Shown piece after piece: positions 1,161 to 33,668 of a stretch of DNA of 38,887 nucleotides. The stretch comes from Nephila pilipes (Eukaryota), in contig BMAW01101096.1 in the NCBI GenBank assembly GCA_019974015.1, forward strand, positions 268,342 to 307,228. The letters run 5' to 3'. Below the pieces are notes generated by a model. The model did not search any database, was not told where the DNA came from, and saw only the letters and a program-made list of their open reading frames with translations. The position numbers and the translations under genes are program-made. Position 1 is the first letter of the stretch; every line of letters begins with the position of its first letter.

Positions 1161-1400
1161 CTCATAAATACGTTGTCTCGGAAATAAAAGAATGCTCTTT
1201 TCTCTTTCAACTTATTTTCTCTAAGAGCTCCAGCATGCATTTCGAGTTCTGTTATTGATAAACCTTTTGGGTACTCTTTTACCCACTGAAGTTCTGGAGC
1301 TTCTGGTGAGTCAAAATTATATATCGTACCGTATCTGTCACCAATTAGACCAATGAAGAAATCAGATTTTTGAGCTTCCAGTAAACATAATTCAGCAGCA
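1161..1400 (-). CDS. Coding exon of an NWD1/NWD2-like gene (DUF4062-type N-terminal module). It is the 3'-most exon in the window, and the gene continues beyond position 1.
   Basis: Minus-strand ORF translates to AAELCLLEAQKSDFFIGLIGDRYGTIYNFDSPEAPELQWVKEYPKGLSITELEMHAGALRENKLKEKRAFFYFRDNVFMR. It is preceded by the acceptor ttttattttag (ag at 1402-1401) and followed by the donor GAG|GTATTT (gt at 1160-1159; an alternative donor lies at 1171-1170). Its first base completes the CG left by exon 3705-3881, giving Arg. The FIGLxGxRYG / ITELE motif pattern matches my recollection of NWD1 N-termini. Confidence 0.55.
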
Positions 1401-3704
1401 CTAAAATAAAAATAAAATAAATTACAAATAAAACACTTCGCGTAAAAGCATTTTAAACATGACATACCGTTTTCGTGTTTCAATAGTTAAAAAGGTTTTA
1501 ATTAAATTCAAAAATTAAACTTTCCTTCTAAATCAATAGACCAAAGAGTAGTTCTTAATATAAACTGCTTCAAGATAGCTAAGGAACAACGAATTTGTGC
1601 AAAACTGCGTTTCTGTCAATTATGAAATCACAGAAAAATAAGTATAGAGAGCATTAAAAAGGCAATTGTACTCTTCTATGTAAGAAGCAGAACACACGCG
1701 TTGTTTATTTATTCCAAATTTTAAGAAAAATCGCTGTCTTGGTTTCAAAAATATTAGTGTAAATGTTCATTTCTTAAGTCAAATACTGAAAAACAAAATG
1801 TCTGTTAGACATAATTTTAATGAGCATGTTCATGGTTGAGCAATTGAACATCTCAAGGAACGATGATTTTATTCGAATTTGCATACTAATAACGGTGTTG
1901 AAAAGTGTTACCTTACAGTCGAGAGTTTGAGCGAGACATTTTGCAAAAATATGATGGAGCCTAAAGGAAGAACACCATACTTCTAGAAGATTGATAACCC
2001 TAGCAGCAAAAAGGAACAGAAATCTTAGATATGATTCAAAAAGTAAATCAATTAATGACATCTAAACTATCATGAGTCTTATAATTCAGTACATATTTAG
2101 AAACAGAAAAGCGAGATTTTCATAAAATTAATACGCAAAATATTTAAAAGAACTGTTGGTGACAAATTGCTTATGATGAATGATAATGTAATACTTCAAT
2201 GGATAAAACTAATTTTGAGCACAAGGCAAGTTAGAATATCCAGGAAAAGAGAAAAATAATACTAAAAAAGCACCAGATATTAAAGAAAATAAATTTCAAG
2301 GTATCAAGCATCTTTCCATAATAAAAAATCTCTTTAAAAAGTAACAGAGCTAATAGTCACAAAAATGTTTTCATTAAATATAAAAATAAAAAAAAAAAAA
2401 AAAAAAGAACAATTGACGGAACTGCATATTTTTGTCACAGAAAATTATTCCTTTGTCTTTTTTTAGTAAAAATGGCTCTAATCATTCACTTCCTTTAACT
2501 TTGAGTTTATATCTCTGACATATTGCCATGAACCTGCGATGACGCTTTTCTGCGATGTTTCTCATATAATGGAGGAGAGACATTTACAAAGATTTCGTTG
2601 GTCAGCCAAGGAAACCTTAAGCAATGACTTTCGACCTCGGTGACTTCGCGAAAAACTAGGCGACAAAACGAAGGTTCTCCAAAATGCTGGAATCTCAACC
2701 AGAGAGAAAGTTAAGATTTTCTCTGAACTTTTTCAGTGGCGTAATACCTGGTCGGAGAGGCAGAAAATACGAGGAGGTGCGAAACCAGAGAATCGATTGT
2801 GATCGGTCGGCAATGGCTGAGTGGATCTGCCGAGGATTTGTCGTAACGAGGCTGAGTCAATTTGATAGGAAGTGCCTGTATCTTCCGGGAAAGTTGGAGT
2901 TATAGGGGTCCGTATGAAATATTGCTTGGAAATTTGTCAGCAGTGCGAAATAGTAAGCCGGTGAGCTGAACGTTATTAAAAGTGCTGTGTGACTGTTATT
3001 TCAAATGCTATTTAGCTGATCCAAACAAAAGCTGTATTTCCTGTTTGTGCTGCTAATTTGTTCAAGTTTTGCTATCTGTGTTCGTTTTATCCTGAATATT
3101 TGTGAATAAAGCGTCATTTGCCATTATCCTCCATGTGGGACTGATACCACTCATACGCGCACACGAGACTGGGGCACTTTCCCAACAACATATGATTGAA
3201 ATCGCGCGCACACTTCACAATTTATTGTGAATTTATGCTAATTTCGAAGTTATGAAATAAATTCTGAATTTCACAAATTACGAATACATATAAATTTTTC
3301 AACCTTCATAAACTTTAAAAGAAAATCCATAAATTATCTTATGCTATTTTATTAGTTACCTTTTCATCTGTTAAGGAAAAATACATTAACAAGCAAATTA
3401 ATTCAAAGCAATTTTTACATATATTGGATTTCGACAACTACGTTTTAGAAATCATGAAGATATTTAAAAAGCACAAACAGAATTCAAAGAAAAACAAAAA
3501 AATTAAACCTAAAATATTTTTTCTGTGTAAACTGTTTAGATTGTGCAGAAAAAATGACGAATGTATACAATGTCTTTGATTTATGACTATACAGTCAGCA
3601 ACATTTTATGCAAGTTTTGAATTTAAAAAAGTTACACGTTTTGATTAAAAATCTAGTTTTTTTAATACTTAGAAACCATGAATATCTAATAAAATAAAAT
3701 ATAC

Positions 3705-3881
3705 CGTTTTGAAGCACAATCAGTCTCAGTAATTCCCCAACGCAAATCCACCTCATTGATTTTAATGAAAATTGAGGCTGCTCTTTTCCTTAATTCTGGC
3801 ATTACAAAGCGAATTAGCATATCTCTTTCACTGTGCATGTCTTTAAACGTTGATGATATAAAAATGCGCACTGTATGCCAT
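3705..3881 (-). CDS. Coding exon of the NWD-like gene. It carries the core of the DUF4062-like module.
   Basis: Translation is WHTVRIFISSTFKDMHSERDMLIRFVMPELRKRAASIFIKINEVDLRWGITETDCASK(R). The acceptor is ttttttag at 3889-3882 and the donor is AAACG|GTATAT (gt at 3704-3703). The exon is 177 bp, and its entry and exit phases are compatible with the neighbouring exons. Confidence 0.6.
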
Positions 3882-4527
3882 CTAAAAAATAGGGAAAAAT
3901 TCAGTTTTAAAGAAAGAATAAATTTTGGCACATATATACAAAACATTCATACTCACTTCAAGCATACGCTTTTGCATACAGATTAATGTATATCAATATA
4001 TGAATTATTAAGCAAAGGCTGTTTTGAAAAACAAGCATTTCAAATCGACATATTGATAAACCGTATTTATTTCATAATACCATACAAAACACATTAATAC
4101 GTATATCAGTTATAAAAACATAGAAGACATTAAAATGAGAGAGAGGAGATATCTTATTTCAAAAGAAATGAAATGGGTACAAAAGTACCTAGCAAATTAT
4201 TTTCATGTAGAAAAAAATAGTAAATGTTTTATTTATAATCTAGTTAAGAAAGGGCATTTAAAGTAAAACAATGAAAAATGGTGACATTACATCGCAGGTT
4301 ACAAAGAAATGACATTTTTTATTTCATAATTCCTATATTTCACAAGTTGTAATATTTGTATGAATTTTTAGAAGGAAATTAAAAACGGGTGGGGAGACAA
4401 GGGTCTATTAATCAGTACAAAGGGCTATCAATTTATTGACAGTTCATTTATTAAACTGAAAAAAAGAATCTGAAGCCATACTATTTTAATATATCAGAAA
4501 ATATGTTGAAATAGCCTTATTTCTTAC

Positions 4528-4689
4528 TTAGGAACTCTAAACAAAGGCAGTTTGGGAACATTCTCTTGTACAGGTGAAATCTTCAGATTATTGTATCGAT
4601 GTGTATTAGTATTCCTGTTTAAATCATATTTAACATCAATATTTTCAATATATGCAAGCTGACCACCACTGGATCGCTCAGCAACAAAC
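4528..4689 (-). CDS. Candidate coding exon of the same NWD-like gene
   Basis: Translation is (R)FVAERSSGGQLAYIENIDVKYDLNRNTNTHRYNNLKISPVQENVPKLPLFRVP. The acceptor is cacttag (ag at 4691-4690) and the donor is CCTAA|GTAAGA (gt at 4527-4526). The exon ends with AA and the next exon starts with A, so the junction gives Lys and keeps the frame into WHTVRIFISS. I see no homology support beyond this phase consistency. Confidence 0.45.
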
Positions 4690-5829
4690 CTAAGTGAAAA
4701 GAAGGAAAAAGAGAAAGGAGTTAGCTCATAGAAATTAAGATGTACTATCTGGTTATTCATAACAGCTCTAAGACTCCGATTTCACACTAATAAAGTATAG
4801 TATAACTGAGTTTAAGTAAGAAAATATTCATACAATACCAAAAAAAACAAGAACTATCTAAGAAAGTTTTAAAATTTTTATAATTTCAATGTTTTGTAAT
4901 ACTAAAAACAGTAGACATGTAGTACTTTAAAGAGATATTTTCAAGAAACTGTGCGGGTAGCAGATGCAATTTTACAACTAAGCAAAAATTAAATACTAAT
5001 GAAAATCATTATACAATAATAATATAATTGTAAATAAAATCAACGAGAAATAGTCAAAAATGTAGCGAATTTTAATCTTTATTACTGGCTCAATAAGCTT
5101 TCGATTATATAAAATGAAAACATCAACGATTTTATACGAAATAGGCATTTTTACTGTATACTGCATGCATCAACTATCTCAAATTGTTATCAACAGAATA
5201 AAAAAAGTATACAATTAATAACATTCGTTTAAACACAACTCTGAAACCTTTTAATATGAATATATTTTACTTACATAAAAAAAACAAGTCTCTGAAATAT
5301 TTTATTCAAATAATGAACGTAACAATCCTTTGTTAAAGAAGATATATTCTATATGCTCGGTTCTTAAATATACGTAACAGTTATTCATGCTCTTTTAATT
5401 GAAGAGGAGAGTATTTTTCATTTTGCTGAAAATGAGCATCCTCTTTTTATAAGCATATTTTTTCACTTTTAAGAACTGAATATTACATGATTTCATAACA
5501 CTCTTATGATAAAAAAATTATGTATAAAAACAATATCTAAGAGTATATTTATGTTCTTAGCAGTTCATTAACATCTCAAAAGAAGATTTCAGTTATTGAT
5601 TTGTTTACTTATATAATTTGTGAAACCCACTTAGGAAAATTCTCCGATGTTCTTAATAAATATTTGATTTTCTTTCGGCATAGTTAATATTTAATACATC
5701 TGTAATACACCATATCGCAAGAAATACATGCACTAGAAAAAATCAAGCCACAATTACGAAATTGAGTACGTATGTAATGTAAGTAGTGATATGTAAATTT
5801 TTAAACTTTTGATGCCAGTGAGATACTTA

Positions 5830-6680
5830 ACTTTAGCAATAGCACCAGTAAGGAAGCATGCTACGCACATATGAGATGCCCACCAGGGATCGTTTAAAAA
5901 CACGAATGTTCGAGTATCGGGTGCGATTTGAACGAAGTTATTGGCTAGTATGCAAGTTATTGTGATTAGAGATGCCTCCAATATTTACCCAGTGGTAGTG
6001 CAAGCAGTTGATGGACCTTGAGTGCAGCCTTATAGTAAACCTCAATGATGCAGCTTGGTCGAAAAGGTCTTCCCCTTCGTCAGAGTGATAGTGATATGGT
6101 AGTAGCTTGGTGTTGGCATCAGTGGATCAGGAGTCAAAGCCCATAAGACTTCTCCCACTGACCCCATGACATAGTCAGTGCCGATTGGATTTTTGCTGAT
6201 ATCAGTCAGGATGAAGAGTTTCCGATTAGAGGCGTATAATCTTCTGTGTGAATCCTGTTTCAGTCTCGTGCTAATGACTACCACACATGCGTGTGGAGGC
6301 CGATTCGGCATTTGTTATTGAATGGTATACGGCCATTACACAAGGTGTGAAATCGCCGTAACCATTAATTGCTCCCCACACTGTTACAACTCATATGACA
6401 GTGTGGAGAGTGATTGGTTAAGAAACTCGATCACGAGTAACCATCCTTCAAGGCACTTTGACGGTTCGCAGTTAAATAAACGATATTTTAACGCCTAATA
6501 TACTGTTCATGCTATTAAGTCGCCTAGGAGCTATTTTTCATCAAAACAATGCTGGGTCACATACAGCGCGACACTCCTATCAATGACTTCGAGGTTATGA
6601 CGTACTCTCATGGTTTACCCGGTCACCACATCTCTCGCCAATAGAGTTCTTCTGGCACATTCTTGGAGGGTAACTGTAGT
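5830..6680 (+). mobile_element. Degraded Tc1/mariner-superfamily transposase remnant (family A), inside the NWD-like intron
   Basis: Plus-strand frames give WIFADISQDEEFPIRG...CVWRPIRH, MTVWRVIG, IFHQNNAGSHTAR and WFTRSPHLSPIEFFWHILG, with stops in between. These are the hallmark DDE-region motifs of Tc1-like transposases (compare FQQDNAxxHTA and WPxxSPDLNPIEhlW). A G12 run at 6743-6754 lies near its end. Confidence 0.6.
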
Positions 6681-8417
6681 CGTCCCGGATTATACCACTG
6701 AATTAATTATCCAATTGCAAAGTTAACTGTAAAATCTATTGCGGGGGGGGGGGGCAAATGTAACCTAAACGAGTCGATGTTATATCCAGTTATGGTTTGC
6801 AAAACAGCCAGAGGCGACTTTACTACTTACTCACGTGAACCATTTTCATGCCATAACATCTTAATATATCGATCTTTAGCTCTAAATCTGTAATAATTTC
6901 CTCATCTCCTGATGCATTACTTACATGTAAGGTTTCGTGATTGTGGCTCGATTTCTTCTGGGTGAATATATATATTTTTGTGACATTGTATATATATCAT
7001 ATATCTTAACATATAAGTCATAAATATAATACATATTTATAAATATAGTAAGAACCTTTTATATAACTCAACTCATTTTATATTTATTGAAAACATGTTA
7101 ATAAAATTTGAGAAACAAATGCAATCTTACTTAATTAACTGTGTAGTGTTTCCACCAAGATAAACATCTTTACCATCTGAAGTATCAGAATAAGTAAAAC
7201 TGCAAAAAGAAGAGAACATAAAAAATAAAATGTATACATTCAATTATTTTTCACGGAACATGTTTCTATGTTATCAATAATAATGGCTAAAGTATTTATT
7301 ACACAATCTTATCAAAAGTCGATTATGTGTGTAACCAAGATCTTTCTAATTCCAGAGTTTTCATTTTGAACATGAACAACAAAATAACAATTCTAAAAAT
7401 TAACATAAATAGAAACCATGTATATTCTTTTACATGAATCTTAATTAAAATAAATAATTTTGAACCTAATAATATGTCGAAGAATTAACATAACATGATG
7501 TTTATAGATTTCAACAATGCGTGAAAAATATATTGAACAAACAATTTCCATTTTCTTTTCACCAATTGAATTTCAATGAAAGTGCTTTCAAAAAAAATTT
7601 AATTATATAAACAATACGTATAGGAAACTATTACAAAATGTTGCCTATGGAAAAAAAACTATACAAGCTCAAGAATCAAAATAATCCAACAAATTATTTT
7701 TCAGGTCAACATAACTTACACTGTAACTTTTTTTTAATTATACAATTCAATAAATCAATGAGACACATTACTTTTCCATGTTTCAATATCGCACAACTTA
7801 AATCGAAACAACTATTATTTCAACAATTTTCTTTACGTCATATTTTGCAGCGAAAAAATAAAAAAGTTTTAAGAATTCTGACGCTAACACATTTTCCCCA
7901 ATAACTTATTCATAATTAAATTTCTTTTACTATTTTTGAAGGGCATTTTTAAACTACTCTGTTCATTCATCGAGATTGAATAAAATTTTTAGTTCTTACT
8001 AATTCACAATAATTTAGTTATATTTACATAGATTTTTTTCTTTCTTTTTCATGGTTAAAGAAAGGCTAATTTCCTTCTAGACAGTATCAAGCATGTTTAA
8101 ACAAAATATACTAGATTCCCTTCCAATGCTAAATTCCGACATGTTAATTGTTGTTCCAAAAATATCAATGCATTTGTTTTCATGTTATGATTCCATAGCA
8201 GCTCAGTGTTACAACATACGTACGAATCATTCGGCTACTTTGACATATGCTATACATATTGTCATATAAATGCTGGAGCAGGTTGAAATGAACACACAAC
8301 AGATATCTAAATAACGTGATTTATTATCAGACCAAGAGCAGCTACATTGGCTGAGAACTCTTTTAGAATGAGAACACATGGGTTTATGTATAACATGAGA
8401 ATATTCCAGAACACCGC

Positions 8418-9400
8418 TCAGGAAACGTAAAGAATATTCTGGAAGGTCTTAGAAATTATAGCAATAAACAGAGAACAACTAAACAAAACTTTAACTAGAA
8501 TTTTTAATGTTGTTAGCACTGTGTTTTGAAACCAGGAAACTATCAGCACTGTTTTTTGAACTGTGTTTGAAATCATACCACCTTCTGTTCTTTTCTTGTG
8601 CTTCCAACATTCGTAATCTGCCCAGTTGTCTAGATTCTTCGGCTCTTGATAGTTACCTAGCAGAATTGTCCTTACGGTTTCTTCAGTCTGAATCGGGAAC
8701 ATAGTGACGAGTGTCTTCTCAGCTTTAAGCCCATGCATAAGATAAAACGGTGGTTGTGTCCAGATTTGTATGCAAAAGTAACAAAGGGAAATATTTCATC
8801 CAATCTTTCGGCTCAACTTCGACGTACATGGACAGCATGTATGTTAATGTCTTATTAAAGAGCTCCGTAAGCCCATTAATTTGGGGATAATAAGCAGTCA
8901 TCATTCGATGGATAACATTACAGAGATGATTAAGTTTCGCAACTAGTTTCGATTGAAACACTCCTCGGTCCTCGATTGTCCACGGTCTTTATTGATAACT
9001 CTGGGAGATAATGTACTCAAGGAGATATTTGGTTATTTCCGGGGCTTCAGCAGTAGGTAATGTCTTCGTGATGGCATAGCGGGTTAAGTAATCAGTGCAA
9101 ACAATGTTCCGTTTATGTCCCCTCAGTGACTTTGGAAATCATCCAAGCAAGTCTATTCCGATCCAATGGAATAGTACGATTGCAGGAGGGCTAGGTACTA
9201 AAAGGCTGAAATGGAAGGGCTTTTCTTCGTTGGCATCCACGGCAATGCATAACATATCGATGTACAATGCAATAGAAACCAGGCCTATAGAATCGTTTCC
9301 TCACGTTGTCATAGGTACTGACAAATCCTAAGTGGCCTGTTGTAGGTGCTTTACGAAAATATTAGAATATATCTGAATAGGAGTTTTGGAATGACCCTTA
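8418..9400 (-). pseudogene. Ty3/gypsy-like retrotransposon integrase remnant (HHCC zinc finger plus rve core), with frameshifts and stops
   Basis: Minus-strand translation contains CYALPWMPTKKSP (zinc-finger region), TDYLTRYAITKTLPTAEAPEITKYLLEYI and ...TAYYPQINGLTELFNKTLTYMLSMYVEVEPKDWMKYFP. These fit the integrase patterns YYWPxM..CxxCQxxK, D.FTKy.EA.P, and Y(H)PQTDGQTER.N.TL..ML. The reading frame is broken. Confidence 0.6.
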
Positions 9401-9425
9401 ACCACATCTTTCCATCTGGATCACA

Positions 9426-9447
9426 TTTTTTTTTTTTTTTTTTTTTT
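9426..9447. repeat. T22 homopolymer
   Basis: Direct reading. Confidence 0.95.
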
Positions 9448-9905
9448 GTAAAGTATTCCATAAAGTAATTCGTAAGTTGTTTTTATTGATTCTGATTTTT
9501 CTGTTGAAGAGAGGTAATCCTCGTGTTCCGAATCCTTCCTTTGATTCGCCGCTAAGTTTGAGAATGAGTCTCAAGAATGTTTACTTCTTCAGAGGAGTCA
9601 ATGTTACAGATTTTGAGAAAGGCTGTCAGCGTTTTATGTTTCTTACTATTATATAAAATGGACATGTAGCATTCTTGAAGGTATCCGACTACGTTAAAAA
9701 CTCGAATTTCGGAGAAAATATCGAATTTTTTTTATTTATCCATTAAAATATTTGAAATCTTCCCTTTCTGTAGCTACATTCCATTTGTAGCTACGGTACA
9801 TAGAAATCAAGTTATAAATATTTTAATATCAGACAATTTCCAAAAAAATTGCCGGAAGTCACGATTTCGAAACCGGAAGTTAATATCTTCTCAAAAATAT
9901 TCGGG

Positions 9906-9932
9906 TTTTTTTTTTTTTTTTTTTTTTTTTTT
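9906..9932. repeat. T27 homopolymer
   Basis: Direct reading. Confidence 0.95.
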
Positions 9933-10553
9933 GTATTTTTGAGAACATTTACTGCTTATATTTTTTTTAAAAACTTTTAAAATATATTAAGATTCATTTT
10001 GAGAAATCTGGTATCACATTTAGTTGCACAATTTTCAAAAAATCAGTGGCAATATACACTCTGTTTACTATTTTGCTGAGCAACGTTTTTTGAATTATGT
10101 CCGAGTTCTGCTTTTAATTGTCATTTTGTTTTTGTATGAAATAACTGTTTAAATTGTGTAATAGTTTTTAGATTAATATTCTTTATTTCAACTATAGGTC
10201 AAACGAAAAATAAACGACAGAGCAAAAAAAAGGAAATTCCATGGTAATCATCATTCTGCTTGTTAGACAACTGATACAGTCAGCACGAGCAGCGAACGTA
10301 AAATTGGAACTGTGGAAACAATAATGAAGGATAGCTTCAAAAAAGACATGAATACACTTGGTAATAGGATTTATAGCCTAGAAATAAGAAATAATTTCAA
10401 GTGTCAATGAAATGCTGAGTTGCCCTTTGTGTTTATTACAAAGTTCAGAACTCAAGGAAGAGTCCAGTTTTGGTTTTCTTTTCAATATGCTCTTGAAATG
10501 AACAAACTGTAATTTCTATTCATGGTTTTTCATCAACTAAAAAAGGAAATAAG

Positions 10554-11844
10554 ATGAATGAAATCAATATGCAGTTTGTTCTAGGTATGCGTTTAATTAG
10601 AAAAGACCATAATGCCTCGAAAAAGCTGAGTGCTGCATTAGATATGCTATGTTTATCCAAGTCAGCTTTCAGGAACTGTGAAAAGAAGTTGTTGAAAGTT
10701 ACAATACCTATTGCACGGGATTCTAGGAATACTGCAGCTTCTGAAATAAAAGAGACAAATCATCAGGAGGAGGGTTTGACAAGCTGTGGTGTATCTTGTG
10801 ATGGTACTTGGCAACGTCGAGGTCACACATCATTGAATGGGTGTGTAGCAGCTTTATCCATTGATACAGGTAAAGTTGTAGATATTGAAATCATGTCGAA
10901 GAATTGCCGCATATGTACTCGAAACAAAAGGTTAAATGTATCCAGTGATCACATTTGTTCGAGAAATCATTCTGGGTCATCCTCCAGCATGGAATCAGTC
11001 GATGCATTTTGCATCTATGAACGGTCTTACCATTTGCGACAGCTGAAGTATTCGTCCTTTTACGGCGACGGTGATTCACAAGGCTTCTCAGCAGTGAAAG
11101 ACATTTATGGAAAAAATAGTGTTTGCAAATATGATAACATAGGGCACATTCAGAAAAGAGTCGGAACTAACCTTCGAAAACTAAAATCAAGCCAGAAAGG
11201 ATTAGGTGGAAAAGGAAAATTTAAGGACAAATTTATTAATAAACTGCAAAATTACTACAGTATTGCAATTAGAAGCAATGTTGGTGATTTGCCGGGAATG
11301 CAAAGTGCTGTAATAGCAGCATTTTATCGCAGCTGTTCAGGAGTGGATCAGCCAATGCATGGCCAGTGCCCGAAAGGACAATTTAGTAGGTGCAAATATC
11401 ATCGTGCGGAACAAAAGTAAATGAAAAATGCAAAAGCCTGACTAAAATCATTGTTAATTCCCTCAAATCTACATATATTGATTTATGCGATCAAAGCTTA
11501 TTAAAAAATGCCTCCATGGCAAAACTCAGAACTCGAATGAATGCTTTAATGGTTGCTTATGGAAAATAATCCCTAAAGATGTATTTGTGGACCATGAAAA
11601 GTTTACTCTGGGAACTTATATATCTGTAATACATTTTAGTGATGGTTATAAGGGAGTGTTAAAGATATTTTATGCATTAGATGTGTTTCCGGGGCAGTAT
11701 ACGGTTGATGCTTTAAAAACTTCGACATTATTCGCATTGCTGACTTTAAACGACATTCATTCCCATCAGCAAAAATGGCAAGAAAAAAAAATTCGAAATG
11801 CAATAAAATCAAATTTCAAAAGAAAGAGAAAGAAGAAGGTGTGA
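10554..11844 (+). mobile_element. Mutator-like (MULE-type) transposase-like gene. It is split into two ORFs (10554-11420 and 11485-11844) by a stop and a frame change.
   Basis: ORF1 contains CGVSCDGTWQRRGHTSLNGCVAALSIDTGKVVDIEIMSKNCRIC ... FYGDGDSQGFSAVKDIYGKNSVCKYDNIGHIQKRVGTNLRKLK. ORF2 contains KKCLHGKTQNSNECFNGCLWKIIPKDVFV...GTYISVIHFSDGYKGVLKIFYALDVFPGQYTVDAL. I recognise this pattern from a widespread family of animal 'uncharacterized' proteins annotated with a Mutator-like transposase domain. The family assignment rests on memory, not on a database search. Confidence 0.5.
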
Positions 11845-12539
11845 CTTATAAAAGGGGGGTAGATTGATTTGGTATGTATATCTTTGTTTTCTGAACAAGT
11901 TTTAACTTTAAATCCAATTTCTGAAGAATATAATTTTCAGTATTTTTACAATTTTTGAAAGGTGATAACTCAAATGTTTTTTTTCTAAATATTGATAACT
12001 TTTGGTAGAAATGTTTTTCATATTATTTTTAAGAGTCTGTTCTAGGATTATTGTAATGTTTGGTTTATAGGTGGATTTATTCTCATTTTAATGCATAATA
12101 ATGGAGGATTTTTTTAAAAAAAACACGTGTTGTTATTTCGACTCTTAATAACTCTGCAAATAATGTGAATTATAAGAAAATCCTAGTTCAGGCCCTGTAC
12201 AGGTGTCATATCAATACATATGCTGAACAACTATGTTATAGAAAGATTTTTCATGAAAGAAGAATATTTTGAAAATGTGCCATTTTTTCCTTATTTTATG
12301 CTAAAAAATTGCATTTTAGAATTTTTTCATTGTAATAAAACTATTAAAATGTTTTTTATGTACATTCTAATTCAGATGATACTAAATACTTAAAAAAATT
12401 ATTCATTTATACGGTTTTTCAAAATTATGGTTCCGAACGTAGTTGGATACTTTAAGGCGCAAACCCAACTTGTGAATCTTCCAGACGAATCTTTAATTAA
12501 CCAGCAAAGAGAATAATAGTTTGTCACAACATTAAATTG

Positions 12540-13670
12540 CTTCCCGAAAAGGTAAGGCCGGAATTTGTGCACAGCTCATACGACAGTAAAATATTCCCTT
12601 TCTGTTGTGGAATAGTTTCTCTCTGCTTTTGAAAGTGCCCATAAGGCATATGCAATCACTTTCTCCTGTCCACCTTATAATTGTAAAATAATTGAGCCGA
12701 TTCCGTAACCACTAGCATCTATATATAGTGATGTGGGAGTCTTTTCGTCGAACAGTCCTAAAATAGAGTCGGAAGTAAGTGCTTTCTTCAACTTGTAAAA
12801 GGTAGTAGCTTGTTCGGGACCCCAACAAAATTTTGAATCCCTTTTCAACAGTTTCTAAAGTGATTGAGCCTGATAGTAAAAATCTTTGTTGAAACGGCGG
12901 TAATAAGAACAGAGTCCCAAAAAACTTCTGACGTCATGTAAATTCTTGAGTTGGAAAACAGCTGAAAGTTTTTACCTTGTCCGGGTCAGGTCGAACACCT
13001 TCTGAAAAAAGAAGGCCCAAAATTTTGATTTCTCGGGTGGCAAAGTAACATTTTTGTAGTTGTGAATGAGCCCAGATTCTAGGATGCAACTCAGAATTAT
13101 ACTTAACCTTACAAAATGTTACTCAAAGGTTTCGGAAAACACCACAACGTCATCCAGGTAACAGAGACACGTTGTCCATTTTAAGTGGCGTAGTAGATTG
13201 TCCATCATTCTTTCAAATGTTGTGGGGGCATTACACAGACCAAAAAGGGCATGACTTTAAGCTTCTGCAGTCTTTATGGAGTGATAAGAGCTGTCTTTTC
13301 ATGGTCAGCGTCATCTACCTTAATTTACCAGTAACCGGTTGGGAGGATCATAATCGAGAAAAATGCAGCAACATTTAAATAGTTTAGTGTATCGTCTATA
13401 CAAGTAGTACATGGTACACATTCTTTTCAGTGATGTGATTGAGGCGACGGTACGCAGAAGAGTCAACTTCCATCTTTATCAAAACAACTGGAAACGACCA
13501 AGGACTCTCCCAGACGGGTAAATTATACCGTTATCTAGCATCTTCTCGACTTGTGGTATTATGCGCTGTTCAGTTGATGACACTCTACGTGAATTTTTAA
13601 TGTTGTCAGCAGTGGATTCTGAACCCGGGAGCTCTCGTTCTGTTTACGAACTACCTCTGCGTCCTCAGTG
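12540..13670 (-). pseudogene. Ty3/gypsy-like pol remnant (reverse transcriptase and RNase H). It is 5'-truncated at the (TA)n / Tc1 boundary and probably belongs to the same element as the integrase at 8418-9400.
   Basis: Minus-strand translation contains IIYPSGSPWSFPVVLIK...YRRLNHITEKNVY, MPFGLCNAPTTFERMMD, CLCYLDDVVV, PDPDKVKTFQLFPTPKNLHDVRSFLGLCSYYRRF and DASGYGIGSILLQL.GGQEKVIAYALWALSKAERNYSTTEREYFTVV.AVHKFRPYLFG. These are canonical RT box and RNase H motifs. Confidence 0.7.
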
Positions 13671-13672
13671 CT

Positions 13673-13674
<2 letters not shown>

Positions 13675-13737
<63 letters not shown>
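13675..13737. repeat. (TA)31 microsatellite
   Basis: Direct reading: about 62 bp of perfect atat. Confidence 0.95.
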
Positions 13738-13738
<1 letters not shown>

Positions 13739-13791
13739 TATATATATTTTTATTTTTTTATTTTTTTATTTGGTTTTAAAAAATTAATGTC

Positions 13792-13816
13792 TTTTTTTTT
13801 TTTTTTTTTTTTTTTT
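13792..13816. repeat. T25 homopolymer
   Basis: Direct reading. Confidence 0.95.
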
Positions 13817-13865
13817 CATTATAAGTTTTATTTTATAATGAAATAAGTAAGTTAATTATTATATT

Positions 13866-15303
13866 TTTTGTGCAAAAGATTTCCAAATCAATACAAATAA
13901 TACCATAAGATCCTCAAGATGCAAGAACATGAGTGATGTAAGCAAAACTTCCCAAAAAAATCAAAAGGATAAAAAGGAACTTTATTGGAAAAAGTAACAT
14001 GGAGCACAAAGCGACTGAAGGCCGAAACATCCATGTGATAGGTGTCCAGCCAGAAACTTCCAGCCTTTAGTAGGAGATATGATAGATATACAGGTTTCAC
14101 ATCATTTGGCCCTGCTGAGTATGAGCTTTTAGATGAGTTGTTGAGGCAATGCAACCCATTCGTCTTGTACCGAGAATTGGAGCTCCGGAATCGTTACTGG
14201 AAGTAAGTTAAGTGCTACCAAGCGTCTCCATAGAAAGTCCCATACATGCTTGATGGGATTCAGATCTGGAGACTTTGCCAGCCAATTCATGCATTCAATA
14301 TCCCCACTGTCCAACAGCTCTTCGACAGCTACTCCGCTATAAGTTGGTACATACTCTTCCATGGAAAGGAACTGTGGACCCATAGCGCCTCTAAAACAAC
14401 ACATACGGAAGGAGAATCTCATTACGATAGCAGGTCAAGGTGACTAAACCTCCTTCAAAGATATGAAGGTTGGTATGGAAACCAAACTTAAGGCCTCCCC
14501 AAACAAGAACACTGCAACCTACAAACCGGTCTCTTTCGTTGATGTTGTAGGGATTATTGCGGTTCTTCACTCTCTCCAGATGTATATGCGTCCAGAATCA
14601 CTATTCAGACTACATCTGTCTCATCCGTAAAGAGTACATGACCCTATCGGTTATCTGTCCAATTCTGGTGTTCCCAGCACCACAGAAATCGCCTTCTCCG
14701 ATAAAGGCATTAAAGGCACACACCGTACAGGTCGTCGAGCAAACAAACCACAACTGTGCAGCGCCCTAGACACGGTAAAACTGCAATTTCTCCCGCTGTA
14801 TACCGCCAGTTCCTTCTGACCTGTAGGGCAATATACCGGTCGTCCACTGACTTGGTTACTCGTGGACGACACAGCTGAACCGCTGGACAGCTGCTCCTGT
14901 AGTTTGAAATTCTCTCCTAAGTCGTGAAACGATGCTGCGAGCAATCCCGTATTCCGTAGTCACAATTCGACCTTCCGCTATATTTTCAATAATTCGACCT
15001 CATGAAAAATCATTGAGATGTTGTCTAACAGATTGACTGTTCGACATTTCACACAAAGGCAGAAACTCGGCGTCATTTCAACTAATACACGCCGTGCAAT
15101 CGCTTTTCCAGAAATTCCTAGTTTACTCCGCTGGCGTGCTTTAAACCGCTTCGACACTGCCGCATTATGACCAGTGCATGTCTCCCCCATGTGCTACCGT
15201 ACCTCACCTTAGTTAATCTCCTGATTCGTCTTTCAGTCCAATTGGCCTCTTCATTCCGCTGATATGCTAATTTTTTTGACTTTGTCCTTAATTTTTGCAC
15301 ACC
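13866..15303 (-). mobile_element. Tc1-like DNA transposon, copy 1 (family C). The transposase on the minus strand is disrupted, and one TIR is partly deleted.
   Basis: The right end CCTTAATTTTTGCACACC (15286-15303) is the inverse of the TGTGCAAAAATTAAGG seen intact at 34157-34172 in copy 2. Copy 1 retains only TGTGCAAAAG at about 13869-13878. Minus-strand ORFs 14129-14422, 14651-14944 and 14978-15190 give SPDLNPIKHVWDFLWRRL, RALHSCGLFARRPVRCVPL and an N-terminal HTH-like segment. These are typical of Tc1 transposases but lie in different frames. Confidence 0.7.
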
Positions 15304-15584
15304 AGTGTATCTATAAATATCATGCATAAATACGAATTTAAATCATGAACCGTTGCAGAGAACTCAACTGTTTTAATTCTGATACTCTCTGAATTACATA
15401 CACAGAACTAACTAAAATATTTCAAGGTAATAACAGAAAATAAATATGCCTTCTCTTTTAAAGAGAACTTAATAATTTCAAATTTCCGATATAAGATTAA
15501 AAATAGTTCTAACTTTCAAACATAAAAGATTAAAAATTCGAATTGTCATTGAAAGAAATATTTTTTTTCAGACTTTTAACATAC

Positions 15585-15733
15585 CTTGAACTACTCATAA
15601 GAAAATCTACATCCGTATATAGCAAATCAGGGTTGACCACTTCTCGATATTTCCGAAGGAAAGATTTGATAACATTCTTCATTTTATCATTATCATCAGC
15701 TCGGGATCCTCCTAAAAATATCACATGATCCAA
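15585..15733 (-). CDS. Candidate upstream coding exon, probably of the same minus-strand NWD-like gene
   Basis: The acceptor tttctag|TTGGAT and donor TTCAAG|GTATGT are very clean. Translation is LDHVIFLGGSRADDNDKMKNVIKSFLRKYREVVNPDLLYTDVDFLMSSS(R). The exon ends with 2 bases of a split codon, matching the 1-base start of exon 4528-4689. Assigning it to this gene is an inference. Confidence 0.4.
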
Positions 15734-16189
15734 CTAGAAATAATAACAAAAAAGGCATTATTTCAAATGAATTATTAAAATATACAAAAAAGATTAAAAG
15801 GATTATGTTTATTAATTCAGGAAATTACTGAATATTTTTTTAAAATATATTTGCTACTCAAATTGCTATAACCCTAAGAAAATTACATAACCATTAACCA
15901 CAAAAAACATTTTTGCTCTCAAAAATTTGTTATTTCAAATGACAAACACATACTTGTGCAGCCCATAGCAAAAATTTATTCAAAAACAATAACACTTCTT
16001 TATCTAAAAGATTAAATGAGCGAAATGATTTGCAATTGATTTGTTTTGTATAAACTGCACGACACTGAAAATGCAACACCAAGAAGAAGTGAGCAGAAAA
16101 TTATGCAAATTTCAGAGTAAACGCACGACACCAAGTTATATAAATGATGTGAAATACGCAGCTCTCCAGTTTACGTTGAAGTAGATATA

Positions 16190-17110
16190 AGTGAAAAAAT
16201 CTGCAGAATGTTCAATTTTCGCAAGGGAAATCATCGTAGAAAATTTGTTCTTGTCTCAGAGGACGCGAGTAATAGCAGAGAATACCAGGCCGTCGTCAAT
16301 GGAGGCAGTTCCAGCAGACAGACGATTTTATGAGGGGCATGGTGATAGGACTGAGAAAGGTAATGAAGCAAATCTCAGCTGATACACACATGGACGCTTC
16401 CACAGTGCGCTGGATGTGGCGAAGGTGGTTGGAAAAAGGAAATGTGGCCAGTTTGAGGGGTGCCAGTCAGCCAGAGTAACGTGAACATGCGTAGACTTTC
16501 GTCGACAAGCGGTGGCGCACCCGGAAACCTCTTATACCTTCAATCTGCAGCATGTTCAAGACACCCTGGACGACGAAATGGCACACGGTCGTGTTCACAG
16601 TGAGTCAAGCTTCTGTTTCTCCAATAATAGTTGCCGGGTACGAGCGTGGCGCCGACGTCGAGACGGGTCCAATCCGGCAGCAATTGTGAAACGCCCCACC
16701 ACGCGACAATGCGGCATCATGGTTTGAGGCGTAATTGCGTATGATTCCAAGTCACCTCTAGTTCATTTTCAGGGTCCTATGAAGGCCCAACGATACGTGG
16801 ATTATGTACTGTGGCCGGTGACACTCTATTACCATCAGGTAGTGCACAATGCCCTTTATCAGCAGAATAACGCCCAACCGCACACTGCTCTCATCAGCCA
16901 ACGTGCTCTGTAAGGTGTACAGATGCTTCCCTATCCATCGTTCTTTTCTTATCTATCACCAATTAAACCCATTTGGAATGTGATTGGACGCCATTTGTAG
17001 ACCCCACCGCTGCCGCGTTCAGAAGACGAACTGTGGCAAATGGTTGACAGGGGATGGAGGGCCATTCCTCTGGACGCCATCCATACTCTCATTGACTGTG
17101 TACCTAGACA
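16190..17110 (+). mobile_element. Tc1/mariner-superfamily transposase remnant (family B), degraded
   Basis: Plus-strand frames give ESSFCFSNNSCRVRAWRRRRDGSNPAAIVKRPTTRQCGIMVW, MKAQRYVDYVLWPVTLYYHQVVHNALYQQNNAQPHTALISQ and ...INPFGMWLDAICR. These correspond to the R.RVWR, MNAQRYvD.IL.P and FQQDNA.PHTA motifs of Tc1-family transposases. The frame is broken and the terminal inverted repeats are not resolved. Confidence 0.6.
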
Positions 17111-19232
17111 TGTTGCTTCGTGTATCGCTGTCCACCGTGGTCCTACAACCTACTGTGTCTGCACTGTTTCTCTCTGTATTACACATATCTTTTTGAAATA
17201 AAGATAACTTATTGTTTGTTGCTGTCTCTCTCTGTTTGCCGAGTTTCATCACTTTCTGGCTACTCCTTGTTATTGCATTTTCAGGGTCCTATAGTGTATA
17301 TCACTCTCCAATATATCAACAATACATAAGTAAAAGTGAGAGGGGATAATAGAGACTTGATGCTTCGTATCTCTTAAAACCTTTTAATCAAATCAAAGGG
17401 GAGAATTGAGCTGTAATTATGTACAATTAGTGAAAAAAAGCTATTCCTAAAGCTTATGGTGTACAAAGAAATATGTTAAATGAATAACTGTTTACATAGA
17501 GTATTTAGATTTGAAGTTACTTATCCACAATTTTATATATACGTAATTCAAAAACTAAAAATACAAAAACGACCGATTAAAATATTTACTTTCCTAAAAA
17601 TGGAAATAAAAAAATCAATATAAAAAAAACCCACGGCAAACAAAAAAATATCCAAGATTGTCCAGTTATATATAAATTCAGCCAATTAAAGCATCGATTT
17701 CAGTAAAGAAATAAATTAATACGATTTTCAAAAAATGACATAATATTATTTTGATAAGTTCCATAACATACAAATAATTCAAAAAATAATCCATTAGCTT
17801 ATTTCATAAAGTATTTGTGAGCACTAACCTGCGTCATATTTCACTCCCCTTTCCCCCGATAGCCAAACGTGTATCACGCTTTATAGCTTGAAGGTAACTA
17901 AATATGAGGTTAACACTTTAACTACAGTATATTTCCTCAGATAAGAAGAGGTGTAAATTTTCATCAAGATCTTTAGTTATAGCATATATCTGTCCTATAA
18001 GACGACTTCCAAATTATCAAGGGCCAATAAATTTTGTTCAGATCCGCAATCCTCATCCGGAATAAATTTTATTTTCTTACATCTGGCAGCACTGTCTATA
18101 GAAACATGTGCCGAATCATGAACACACATGTATTTCTTACAAGTACCTCTATACAAATCCGTCAAAAAATGTGGGATTTCTAATGCTATGGATAGCACTG
18201 AGGACGATTAGTTATGGGATACTGAGGAGAAAATGGAAATCGATTCGCTTAGTACAGAATGTGGGACCCATAAGACGAGTTTCTCAACGAGAGTGAAGAT
18301 GCATTTGAGGAGTTATTTGCCATAGATAATAAACAATGAATAACTTCTCAACAACGAAAGTAACAGTATACTTGAGGAGTGCTTTGGATGATGAGTGAGT
18401 GAGAGTGGATTTTAATGGCGCAAGAGCGACATATGGCTATGATGCGCCTAACAAGGTTAAGGGGGGGAAATAAAAACATGAAATACAAATCACACATTGA
18501 AAATACAATTACGTAAAATCACGAAAAAGCTAAAAACATTCGAGTAAAAATGCACAGCTTAAAAATAGCAAATTTAAAACTAATATGCAAGGCTTAAAAT
18601 AGTAAATGAAACTGTTGTTGATTATGCGTAGCTTTCCATACAACCATTATTTTCGGATAAGTTGCTTAGAACGCTTTAAATGCAGTGATGTTTCCATTTC
18701 GTCCGCAGCATCAATCAACGAAGAGTCATCGATGTCATATAAAATCATGTCATCGTCGTCAAGGGCAGGTATGAGAGAACCTTTTTTGGGTGCATGTGGA
18801 TTCATTGTAATTGCTATCTGGGGTTTATTACATATCGTGAGATTTATATAAGCTATTTTTATAAGTTATTTTTTCTCTGGGCTTTTTTTGAGGTCTATGT
18901 TTTAGAGCCCTATCAAGTAAGGGAATGAAATATTTAGATTAAGAAGAAGTTTTGGGTGTGGTTTTTTTAGTAAGAGGTAGAATGCATGTCTGTGAGGAAG
19001 TTGTCGATGTGGAGACATTATTTATGGAGGAAGAGGAAGGCAACGGGGTGGAGGAAAAAGATAAAAGTTTCAGTACCTGTAAAGGTGGACATAAAACTTT
19101 CGTAATGTTTGGGTCAGTTTGGGTGGTAGCACAGAGAGAATATTTTGCAGCCTGGGCATAAGAATGAGATACCTGTGAGACTATTTGTTTACGTGCTTCG
19201 ATATAAGAGATGTTTTGAGTTGTTTTTATTTC

Positions 19233-19730
19233 CTAGATTCGTTTTCCAACTGTCCATTTCAGACATAATTTCAAATCAGACGAATGAGATTGTTTAACAC
19301 ATCTAGGCTCCAGAAGGCAATATGGGGAAGAATGTCCAACAGACGCACATCTATAGCATGTTAATTTCCCTCTGCATGCTGCATTTGAATGATCGAACCT
19401 CTGACACTGAAAATAGCACAGAGGATTGGGAATACATGGACGTACGTGACAGTTTAGATATCCTGCTTTTATTGTAGTGGGTAGTTGTGGGCTATTGAAT
19501 GTTAATATCAAGTGTTTTGTCGGAAAGGAAGTGTTATCTTTCTTAACTATTATTCTTCCGACTTGAGTGACACCTTGATCGGAGAATCCATCCAGGATAT
19601 CTGCGTCAGAGGTGCACATCAAGTCAGATTCAGAAATGACACCATGACAGGAACTAAGCGACTTATGAGGAATGACCGTAAGGGGTAAATTTAAAAAGGT
19701 TTTTACTAATAAAAAAGATTTAGTTTGCAA
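19233..19730 (-). mobile_element. Non-LTR (LINE-type) retrotransposon ORF1 / gag-like fragment with a triple CCHC zinc knuckle
   Basis: Translation is ...KAGYLNCHVRPCIPNPLCYFQCQRFDHSNAACRGKLTCYRCASVGHSSPYCLLEPRCVKQSHSSDLKLCLKW. This matches the CX2CX3-4HX4C knuckle pattern of insect LINE ORF1 proteins. The flanking GC-richer DNA (about 18.3-20.4 kb) is probably the same element, but its limits are unresolved. Confidence 0.6.
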
Positions 19731-21094
19731 TGCGAAAGTTTATTCTATAAGCAAATAACCAGAACGTAGCTTTTTAACTTATTTCAGATCTCCACCGATA
19801 CCAAAAAGTGCCTTCTGAATAGCAAACGGAGACTGCTTAGACATTTCATTATTTGGAAGGGAAAGAATCAAAAACCGACAATGTGTAGCAACGTTATCGA
19901 CACTGGACGAATTGGGTAATACAAGGTCATTACCCGGTCACGATAAAGAATGATCCAAAGGAAGAAATAGGTATTCATCCTGAAGTGCCTCCACCCACCA
20001 TGAAATCCAACGAGGGAGGCAATTGCCGGTCAACTGACATATGTCAGGCACGACACTTACCTGGAGGTCACCCAGGATATAGCATCAGGGTGAAGATCCA
20101 CGATTCGACGAAAACAGCCGACTGCGAGTCTGCAACTAAAATCATGAGACTACCGTGGTCACGTACTAAATCGAGGATGTTGTAAAACGTTGCAATAGAT
20201 TTTATCCTTGCATCTCATACCGTTTTCGAGATTCGAACACTCCAATGTTTGCCACCAAGTAGCGCTGTAACCGATCAATCCTATAGCAGCCAATTTTCTA
20301 TACCACGACACCTTATTGGAAGCAAAAGCTACTATTGTTCTGAAGTTAAGGTAGGGGTGGGGAATATAGGATTTAAGTGAACACCTTGAATATTCCTCAT
20401 AAAATATACACAAACATTCTCACAGCAACATTTACCTAAGTTCAATTTTTATTAAATTAAATTCCAAAAAAGCAAAATTTAATTTTAAATTGATTTTAGT
20501 ATCAATGTACATCACATTTAATACAGATACTATAGTTTTCTGGCAATGGCGCAAGAGCCAGATTCCGCTCTTGTACCATAAGCCTACATTCATTCACTCG
20601 CGGCATCGCATTAAGCTTTAATTCTCAGTTTGCATTCGACCATGGTCGACGGATGAAATCCACCTGAGAGCCCATATTTATTCTGGAAAGCTTATGAACT
20701 GAAGCGAAGCGCGACCCCGCGTCTCTTTAAGAAGTAAAATCGATATAGGATTTTATCTTCCTGTTGTTGTGATTTGCATCCTAAATTTATAATTAATTAA
20801 TGTTAATTTAAAATAAAATCTTACATGTATTATTCTTATTAAATTGATAGTTTTGAACACTTTTGATTCCTAAAAGTCATGAGTTGAGACTCAATTTCAT
20901 ACTCTTTATTTGGCTTACCCATATATTCTAAGAGACATATTTGGTGGAGACTCAAGGTATTGATCAACACGATGGAGCAGCTACGTAGAAGTCTATGTCT
21001 CCAAGGTCTCTCTCTTGAATTCAGCCAATTACCATATCCAAGTAGAAGCTATAAAAAAAATGACTGACGATTTCTTATAACACCCAGGCCCAAG

Positions 21095-22000
21095 TTGACA
21101 ACTTCACCCAACATCTCTCCAGAGCTGTTACTGACCTACCAACTACCAAGAAATCCATGCACCTTTTCTGGTGACGACCAACAAGATTCTAGTAAATGGT
21201 TCAAGGACTGTGAATGGATCGCATCCTATAACCGCTTTCGAGTAGTGTCCGGTGTACGTCGTTTTTCACTTCACTAGTGCAGCTAGACTATAGTTTGATA
21301 ATTGTAAACACCTTCCCGAACTAAGAGAACTACATTCAGAAACTACCTGAACAATACGTTTTGCCGTACAGATGATCCAAAACGCCAAGCTGAAAGGTGT
21401 TTGCTTACACATTTCCAGCAAATTGATAAGATGTCCGAGTCGTACATTAAGGATATACATGCTTCGTGCCGAAAAGTGAACCTCTCCATGCAAAAAGACG
21501 AGAAAGTGACTCATCTGCTGGTTCAGGATTATAAAAATCTTGATGAATTTGTAAAACGTTGCCAATAAATATATAATCTTAAAAGGATACGCATCATCCG
21601 GCCTAAATTTCGGAAGTTACCCAATGTTTGTACCGTATCAGCCGATACAGACATGGTTGATTTAAAATCCCTGGTACGTTGCACTGTTAAGGAAGAGATT
21701 CAGAAGATCCTACCAGAAATGTAGTATACCAATGACTAATCCGTATCTTCAGGTTACATTGCATCTATAGTCTGGGAACAGGTTGTGGAGGCTCTCATTC
21801 CGACCACTAATCCAAGAAGACGCAATACCACTCTTCATTACCAGGTTCCAGATAGGTAACAGCCAAGACATCCAGTCAGAAACTCCGCCGTTCTACAGCG
21901 TAAAACAGATCCGGGGGAAACTGCCGAGAATGTATCTGTCTGTTACCATTGTGGACGTCCGGGACCCGTAATGCGTTGTAGTAGAAATCGACGGCGAATA
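21095..22000 (+). mobile_element. LTR-retrotransposon gag-like fragment with a CCHC knuckle
   Basis: ORF 21095-21277 gives LPRNPCTFSGDDQQDSSKWFKDCEWIASYNRF, a gypsy gag-like PxFSG...W motif. At about 21941-21995 a downstream frame gives CYHCGRPGPVMRCSRNRR, a CCHC knuckle. The region is fragmented by stops. Confidence 0.4.

Positions 22001-24049: not shown

Positions 24050-24051
<2 letters not shown>

Positions 24052-24083
<32 letters not shown>
24052..24083. repeat. T32 homopolymer
   Basis: Direct reading. Confidence 0.95.
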
Positions 24084-24088
<5 letters not shown>

Positions 24089-27000: not shown

Positions 27001-27316
27001 GGTGACCAATATTATATCGCATTATTAATTAATTATTGTTATCGTTAATAAATTTGAAATTACAATTAGAATATTAGAAATTAAAAAAAAGATTTGAAAA
27101 CGGTTATTTTATTTTTATTTAATTTCAAAGGTTATTTTTCATTCTATGAAAAAAATTCTACATAAAATCTTATCAAATGCATGGTATATTTAAATGAAGT
27201 TTTTCTCTTTTGTTACAAAATTTTAAATACAATTCTTATTTCTTTTTAAATGCTACATATTTCAATTTAGTTGGTATTTGTTTGTATTTACTATATATGC
27301 ATACTTCTGTTTACAG

Positions 27317-29911: not shown

Positions 29912-30829
29912 GTAAGTATTACATTATTAATTATATTCAGAAAAAATAAATGTTTGTGTTTTCAATATTTAAACGCTTTATTAAATATAATTGTAAGTAT
30001 TTAAATGATTTTAAAAAATATTTACAACCAAACTGGTAAAAAGTAAATAATAATAATTTTATCAACCTCAAAATTTCTTCTATTCATGTTTAAGCAAAAT
30101 GAAATTTCTTTATTATATAAGTCGAATTGAGAAATACTTAATTAACAAATTAACAAAATAAAACATATATAAATAAAAAAAAAAAATTATGGCTGAATTC
30201 TATAACATTGCTATTTTTCATCAAAGTAAAAATAAAATGTAATAAACAACTATGAGCTTTTGAAAATGGGAAAAAATATATATATTTGAAAAATTTAAGG
30301 GGAAAAAATGAAAAAATATTGAAATTTGTGTGACGGCATTTCAAAATATTTTAATCATAAGCTGGAGATAAAAAGTTATTAGAACACAACATTTAAATAA
30401 AAAACTCAAAATTCATATTTTTTTGTAATGTTTTAAAGATATTTTAAATGATACTAAAAATATTAACTTATACAAATAGATTTTATTTGACACATTATTA
30501 GACCATTTTCGTAACAGTGAAATTTAAAGGTCACCAATGAGCTTATATATGTATATCCAATTCATTATATTCAATACTTTGTCTACATATGGAAAAAGAT
30601 GATGATATTAATGGGATAAATTCTACGATGATGAAAAAAATAACATTTATCTAATGCATTTTAAAAGAAATTGTTTATCATACTTTAATACAAATAAGAC
30701 TTCTAAGAAAAATTAACTATAATACATATATTTATATTGTTTTCAGTATTTTATACAAATCACAGTTTTATAGGAATATTAAAAAATTCATAATTTTTAA
30801 ATGAATTATCGTTTTTGTCTTTTTTCTAG

Positions 30830-33647: not shown

Positions 33648-33668
33648 TTTTTTTTTTTTTTTTTTTTT
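33648..33668. repeat. T21 homopolymer
   Basis: Direct reading. Confidence 0.95.

Follow-up and report, generated by a model that had tools for sequence, protein, structure and literature searches.

Telomerase protein component 1 (TEP1) is a vault-particle protein with the architecture TROVE-vWA-TIR-like-NACHT-WD40. Its DUF4062 domain was first reported as a TIR-like NADase in 2026, with NADase activity known for the human protein only and from preprints; the catalytic glutamate of the human TEP1 NADase is E1008, and changing R908 to alanine lowers the activity (10.64898/2026.05.01.722283; 10.64898/2026.09.04.749371). NWD1 and NWD2 carry the same DUF4062 (TIR-like/NIR) module and follow the same STAND NACHT-WD40 logic, but their domain is N-terminal and is not accompanied by TROVE or vWA regions, and no NADase activity has been seen for human NWD1 or NWD2 (10.64898/2026.05.01.722283; 10.64898/2026.09.04.749371). 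The bacterial DUF4062/NIR defence effectors, such as Swarozyc KpSwz, Avs2-NIR, Vulcan, and Vesta, belong to the same domain family and have the same catalytic Glu, but they differ from TEP1 in being prokaryotic, phage-triggered abortive-infection proteins of other architecture and distant sequence similarity.

Within the window, that is, the whole 38,887-nucleotide stretch of Nephila pilipes DNA that was analysed, positions 1161–15733 very probably hold five consecutive internal coding exons, on the minus strand, of a spider TEP1 orthologue. The exons, in the order of the predicted transcript, and the catalytic codon are as follows:

15585..15733, minus strand: exon A, encoding LDHVIFLGGSRADDNDKMKNVIKSFLRKYREVVNPDLLYTDVDFLMSSS, part of the vWA-like/DUF5920 region
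7131..7199, minus strand: exon A', 69 nt, with a CAG acceptor and a GTAAG donor; absent from the earlier note
4528..4689, minus strand: exon B, encoding FVAERSSGGQLAYIENIDVKYDL..., in which DUF5920 ends and a poorly conserved linker follows
3705..3881, minus strand: exon C, first half of the DUF4062/TIR-like NADase domain (WHTVRIFISSTFKDMHSERD...VDLRWGITE)
1161..1400, minus strand: exon D, second part of the DUF4062/TIR-like domain (FFIGLIGDRYG...SITELEM...FFYFRDNVFM)
1241..1243, minus strand: GAA codon (Glu), the second E of ITELEM, aligning with E1008, the catalytic residue in human TEP1

The joined five-exon translation of 265 aa matches Pfam DUF4062 (PF13271) with 54 bits against a cut-off of 24.7, which identifies the motif module described in the earlier note. 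In frame directly upstream of this domain, the same translation matches the TEP1-type DUF5920 (PF19334) over model positions 94–200 of 203, with 27.9 bits, barely above the cut-off of 27. The top named database matches are spider "telomerase protein component 1" proteins, and the best among all representatives is XP_035227346.1 (P0093; TEP1-like, Stegodyphus dumicola; E 5.7e-101), with 63% identity over query residues 1–262; this protein and a second match, P0094, contain TROVE, DUF4062, WD40, and Beta-prop_TEP1 domains. The top solved-structure match is the TIR-like domain of human TEP1 (crystal structure 11gz, chain 11gz_A; E 5.7e-36, 43% identity), and the second, weak at E 0.09, is KpSwz. 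The likeness to TEP1, both human and that of S. dumicola, is colinear over DUF5920/vWA and DUF4062. Similarly, residues 723–984 of the 2,086-aa Stegodyphus mimosarum TEP1 match the window exons colinearly, with block ends that coincide with the exon boundaries. Since full-length relatives measure ~2,100–2,600 aa and the window holds only residues ~723–984 (~265), the exons come from the middle of the gene and not, as the earlier note had it, from its 5' part. The C-terminal half of the vWA-like/DUF5920 region would come from exons A, A', and B, and exons C and D would supply about 140 residues from the start of the DUF4062 (TIR-like, "NIR") domain (the crystallised TEP1 domain has ~218); this domain and the gene run on past the window start after exon D. 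The TROVE exons would sit upstream, past the window end, and what remains of the TIR-like domain, together with NACHT and the WD40 propellers, downstream, past the window start.

The earlier note had described four minus-strand exons with canonical splice sites; these have AG acceptors and GT donors and form a single open frame when joined, but a fifth exon at 7131–7199 had been overlooked. Exon A' encodes (S)FTYSDTSDGKDVYLGGNTTQLI(K), i.e., FTYSDTSDGKDVYLGGNTTQLI plus two split codons. Because its 69 nt are a multiple of three, a direct 15585→4689 junction is also in frame, and a check of codon phases is consequently blind to the gap. The sequence and splice sites of exon A' are kept in Trichonephila clavipes and Caerostris extrusa, i.e., in three spider genomes in all, and what had been taken for a single intron of ~10.9 kb is split by it into introns of 8,385 bp and 2,441 bp. 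The junctions 15585→7199, 7131→4689, 4528→3881, and 3705→1400 are thus predicted from splice consensus, reading frame, and homology. The direct 15585→4689 junction could alternatively represent a genuine isoform in which exon A' is skipped, which the preserved reading frame would allow; such an isoform appears unlikely, as the A' segment is found in every TEP1 protein aligned, the exon is constrained against T. clavipes (pN 0.04, pS 0.20), and DUF5920 is listed by Pfam, above its cut-off, only when exon A' is included. At the upstream end, exon A aligns with residues 723–773 / 359–405 of Stegodyphus TEP1, and its sequence is kept at the Caerostris locus (L002). An AG acceptor marks its beginning and an in-frame TAG lies immediately before it, so that it is not a first exon.

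The introns of the predicted TEP1 gene are heavily loaded with transposons, and the following features lie between or upstream of the exons:

4690..7130, minus strand: intron A'-B, 2,441 bp, carrying a weak Tc1-like remnant
~6410–6670, plus strand: weak Tc1-like remnant, found by tblastn against the Tc1 copies of other spiders
7200..15584, minus strand: intron A-A', 8,385 bp, with the bulk of the transposon debris
10554..11420, plus strand: Mutator-like (MULE) transposase ORF, 288 aa, antisense to the host gene
12399..13700, minus strand: gypsy-type LTR-retrotransposon pol fragment, degenerate, with stops and frameshifts
~13865..15008, minus strand: Tc1/mariner transposase remnant, degenerate (HTH and DDE parts), solid by tblastn
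15734..38887, minus strand: section of the intron that precedes exon A, >23 kb and running off the window, with an opposite-strand LRR gene inside

The Mutator-like ORF matches Pfam PF20700 (E 2.1e-50, 172 bits), and the gypsy-type fragment contains RVT_1, RT_RNaseH_2, and RT_RNaseH, with RNase H at 12399–12848 (minus strand) and RVT_1 within 12850–13700 (minus strand; E 4.6e-10). The Pfam search of the intron frames was run with stops written as X, which reduces its sensitivity, and gave no match at E ≤0.01 for the Tc1 or integrase-like stretches; Tc1 elements were for this reason identified by tblastn to the Tc1 copies of other spiders. The remnant at ~13865–15008 matches those of T. clavipes and C. 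extrusa with E 1.7e-21, and its Pfam matches to DDE_3 and HTH_Tnp_Tc3_2 are weak, with both domains present in the matched spider copies. No third Tc1 remnant was found inside 1161–15733, and the integrase-like stretch at ~8725–9330 (minus strand) had no match in the Pfam search. The transposon nest that the earlier note had placed in this region is thus largely confirmed, with its MULE transposase, its gypsy pol, and one solid and one weak Tc1 remnant. The orthologous intron A-A' in Caerostris is only ~4.6 kb long. As in other spiders, the gene would be very large, with introns that have gathered lineage-specific Tc1, gypsy, and Mutator insertions; these insertions and the poorly conserved exon B linker are among the points in which the Nephila sequence differs from its TEP1 relatives.

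Upstream of exon A, TROVE and first-half vWA exons were sought in 15734–38887 by tblastn and profile HMM, and only exon A was found. The tblastn queries included partial matches, the N-terminal parts of P0093 and P0094, and the 2,086-aa S. mimosarum protein in its full length. The profile HMM represented the N-terminal regions of 15 TEP1 proteins and was run against all stop-free segments of at least 10 aa. A 14-residue match (IDNLIILS...) at 34435–34476 lies close to a Tc1 remnant at neighbouring coordinates and was taken as chance. Similarly, when 15.4–27.4 kb was compared in translation with the loci of T. clavipes and C. extrusa, only exon A and Tc1 copies came up. The 38.9-kb window has no coding sequence for TROVE, NACHT, or WD40, and the full architecture is taken from the orthologues. 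TROVE is expected outside the window because spider TEP1 genes span hundreds of kb; for example, the S. dumicola TEP1 gene occupies 340 kb, encodes one 2,010-aa product, and has an opposite-strand LRR gene nested within it. The same nesting in S. dumicola and synteny in Caerostris place the Nephila locus in a neighbourhood shared among spider TEP1 genes. In the other direction, the orthologous loci have an AAA_22/NPHP3_N gene model (T. clavipes) and WD40 (C. extrusa) downstream, in agreement with the earlier note, which had placed the NACHT and WD parts beyond the window start. It is decidedly improbable that the persistence of the nested LRR gene (TLR/LGR-like ectodomain) from Stegodyphus to araneids reflects functional coupling rather than neutral retention. 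One example of such coupling would be an LRR receptor that is regulated jointly with an NLR-like NADase.

The exons are also under coding constraint. Their dN/dS values of 0.15 (T. clavipes) and 0.14 (C. extrusa) indicate purifying selection, and the amino-acid identity of exon C to T. clavipes is 91–93%. Residues were mapped by alignment to PDB 11gz_A with an offset of +893, by which R908, R954, and R976 each coincide with an Arg of the chain and E1008 with a Glu. The spider sequence keeps the Glu of E1008, as well as Arg at the positions of R954 and R976, and it differs from human TEP1 in having Lys at the position of R908. By inference, the spider TEP1 protein would have NADase activity and act in vaults, and chelicerate TEP1 may possibly be an active vault NADase. 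Alternatively, the exons could be a TEP1 pseudogene in decay or a piece of a broken gene among transposons, severed from its TROVE exons. This would agree with 38.9 kb of sequence without upstream or downstream TEP1 exons, with the transposon load of the introns, and with the way in which T. clavipes and C. extrusa are publicly annotated, where the gene is given in fragments. Such decay is nevertheless very improbable: all five exons are open with intact consensus splice sites, dN/dS is ~0.15 against two species, the catalytic Glu is retained, and the gene order, including the nested LRR gene, is that of the 340-kb S. dumicola TEP1 gene, by which giant introns account for the absent neighbouring exons.

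The earlier note had assigned the gene to an NWD1/NWD2-like family, with an N-terminal DUF4062 followed directly by NACHT and WD40. This assignment is hardly credible, for although DUF4062 is common to NWD1, NWD2, TEP1, and NPHP3 (10.64898/2026.05.01.722283), the motifs named in the earlier note are domain-wide, and many long N-terminal-DUF4062 proteins match exons C–D (~1e-30 to 1e-35), the domain is internal here, exons A, A', and B precede it in frame and match the TEP1-type DUF5920/vWA, exon A is not a first exon, and TROVE-bearing TEP1 proteins are the best matches at every level. When only the DUF4062 part is scored, TEP1-type proteins attain up to 242 bits, and the highest score for a long protein (>1,000 aa) that has an N-terminal DUF4062 and lacks a vWA match (NWD/NLR-like layout) is 140 bits, a comparison by proxy in which N-terminal-DUF4062 proteins stood in for named NWD sequences. 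By sequence, the family is TEP1, not NWD1/NWD2. An arthropod NWD-type gene, which had been put forward as worth confirming, would in any case be no novelty, as experiments already make use of Nwd1 from Drosophila melanogaster (10.64898/2026.09.04.749371).

The flagged gene is therefore a known and ordinary one, whose annotation other spiders already carry, and the main value of the finding is correct annotation, with little significance otherwise. A call of NWD based on motifs should have been TEP1, and the flagged stretch belongs to the middle of a giant spider gene and not to its start. The structure of the locus also carries a lesson, in that a short exon can hide behind a frame-consistent junction if its length is divisible by three. 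Work on the TEP1 NADase gains from this locus a small and expected comparative data point, namely a spider orthologue that is under purifying selection and has kept the catalytic Glu.

The minus-strand gene at the start of the window is an ordinary, already annotated spider TEP1 (telomerase protein component 1, a vault protein), of which five internal exons are in view:

15585-15733, minus strand, exon A
7200-15584, minus strand, intron A-A', 8.4 kb
7131-7199, minus strand, exon A', 69 nt, acceptor ttttgCAG and donor GTAAGA
4690-7130, minus strand, intron A'-B
4528-4689, minus strand, exon B
3705-3881, minus strand, exon C
1161-1400, minus strand, exon D

The joined translation of 265 aa contains the TEP1-type vWA-like region DUF5920 followed by DUF4062 at 54 bits (Pfam), and its best solved-structure match is 11gz_A, "Telomerase protein component 1" (E 5.7e-36; 43% identity over 140 residues). 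The first matches in a word-indexed protein search were spider "telomerase protein component 1" fragments, and the top match in an exhaustive search of representatives was the 2,010-aa XP_035227346.1 of Stegodyphus dumicola, labelled "telomerase protein component 1-like" (E 5.7e-101, 63% identity, query residues 1-262). Both this protein and the second match (2,612 aa) carry the TROVE, DUF4062, WD40, and TEP1-specific beta-propeller Pfam families. The exons are colinear with residues 723-984 of a 2,086-aa S. mimosarum protein and residues 728-994 of the 2,612-aa protein, and the window therefore covers a central portion, roughly one eighth, of the coding sequence rather than the 5' part of a gene as the earlier note had proposed. 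The DUF4062 part alone scores up to 242 bits for TEP1-type proteins and 140 bits for the best long N-terminal-DUF4062 protein without a vWA match (NWD/NLR-like layout). The assignment to NWD1/NWD2 in that note thus had the correct domain superfamily but the wrong family; an N-terminal DUF4062 defines NWD proteins, and here DUF5920 precedes it. An NWD gene in an arthropod, described there as worth confirming, would not be new in any case, as Drosophila Nwd1 is already in use (10.64898/2026.09.04.749371).

Exons A, B, C, and D had been recognized correctly, each with a polypyrimidine tract and AG before it and GT after it, and they join into a single open frame. Exon A begins just past a splice acceptor with an in-frame TAG directly 5' of it, and is therefore an internal and not a first exon. 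The fifth exon, A', had been missed. When the first database hits were used as tblastn queries, a Caerostris extrusa protein proved to have, between exons A and B, a stretch of ∼20 residues missing from the four-exon model, which matches 7130-7189 on the minus strand (SDTSDGKDVYLGGNTTQLIK vs. SDSEDGKNVFLGGNPNQLVK). The direct A-to-B junction had been in frame because the length of exon A' is a multiple of three. Exon A' and both its splice sites are kept in the genomic DNA of Trichonephila clavipes and C. extrusa, its segment is found in every TEP1 protein examined, and DUF5920 reaches 27.9 bits (cut-off 27) with it and goes unreported without it (Pfam). The supposed single intron of ∼10.9 kb is consequently two introns. 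All five exons are open. Their Nei-Gojobori dN/dS is 0.15 in the comparison with T. clavipes (212 codons, dS 0.50) and 0.14 in that with C. extrusa, the latter with saturated dS; this favours purifying selection over a pseudogene.

The transposon nest described for the single intron is largely borne out, with its contents spread across both introns and a third Tc1 remnant left unconfirmed:

10554-11420, plus strand, Mutator-like transposase, E 2.1e-50
12399-12848, minus strand, gypsy-type pol, RNase H
within 12850-13700, minus strand, gypsy-type pol, RVT_1
∼13865-15008, minus strand, Tc1/mariner remnant matching Tc1 copies of two other spiders, E down to 1.7e-21
∼6410-6670, plus strand, weak Tc1 remnant, in intron A'-B

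A minus-strand stretch at ∼8725-9330 has no match in a Pfam search but looks by eye like the core of a retroviral-type integrase (YYPQINGLTELFNKTL). The Mutator ORF separates it from the gypsy RT/RNase H pieces, ∼3 kb away, an arrangement that would fit Mutator insertion into a gypsy element. Intron A-A' measures ∼4.6 kb in C. extrusa vs. 8.4 kb here, and the C-D intron is ∼7.8 kb with a Tc1 copy in T. clavipes vs. 2.3 kb here; the insertions are thus specific to each lineage, an expected pattern in large spider introns. Two further degenerate Tc1/mariner transposase remnants lie outside the span 1161-15733, at 16191-17200 (plus strand) and 34218-34774 (minus strand), the latter related to the copy at ∼13.9-14.4 kb (80-84% amino-acid identity over short stretches). 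Simple repeats comprise (AT)36 at 13675-13747, poly-T runs of 35 and 25 bases at 9906-9940 and 13792-13816, and an (AT)n run at 1-20.

Neither tblastn nor a profile HMM picks up coding sequence for TROVE or for any other N-terminal part of TEP1 anywhere in the window. Upstream of exon A, on the opposite strand, lies a large LRR gene (27227-33138):

27227-30001, plus strand, open LRR stretch of 925 codons
30830-31678, plus strand, open LRR stretch
32767-33138, plus strand, open LRR stretch without a Pfam match

Among solved structures it best matches LRR ectodomains (IGFALS, LGR4/5, TLR3/13). C. extrusa also has an opposite-strand LRR gene upstream of exon A, about as far away, and the 340-kb TEP1 gene model of S. 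dumicola encloses an LRR_8 gene of 1,235 aa in the opposite orientation. Read most simply, the intron 5' of exon A exceeds 23 kb and has the LRR gene nested inside it, and the TROVE exons would lie past the window end. A 168-aa open frame without a Pfam match occurs at 19236-19739 (minus strand), among several further long open stretches (∼18.9-22.9 kb). Downstream, orthologous loci carry AAA_22/NPHP3_N (NACHT-like) and WD40 gene models, in agreement with the earlier placement of the NACHT and WD parts beyond the window start. Public annotations break TEP1 into short models of 206 and 601 aa in T. clavipes (BMAU01005471.1) and of 282 and 1,330 aa in C. extrusa (BPLR01003961.1), probably because of the long, transposon-rich introns; the 206-aa model runs on into the intron after exon C.

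DUF4062 is described in two 2026 preprints as a TIR-like NADase domain ("NIR"), with which human TEP1 converts NAD+ and NADP+ into ADP-ribose (or its phosphate) and nicotinamide in an E1008-dependent manner, R908 and R976 contributing, while human NWD1, NWD2, and NPHP3 are inactive (10.64898/2026.05.01.722283; 10.64898/2026.09.04.749371). The numbering is supported by the 11gz_A alignment, in which an offset of +893 puts R908, R954, and R976 on Arg residues of the chain and E1008 on a Glu. The equivalent spider positions are:

codon 1241-1243, minus strand, E1008 position, Glu, second E of ITELEM
split codon across the C/D junction, minus strand, R954 position, Arg
GDRYG motif, minus strand, R976 position, Arg
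TFKDM motif, minus strand, R908 position, Lys

The equivalents of E1008, R954, and R976 are thus kept, whereas R908 of the human protein is replaced by Lys in the spider. The spider protein is predicted to be a catalytically competent NADase; analogy to other TIR and STAND proteins and to the data of the preprints suggests that it may be activated by oligomerization and act in vault particles.
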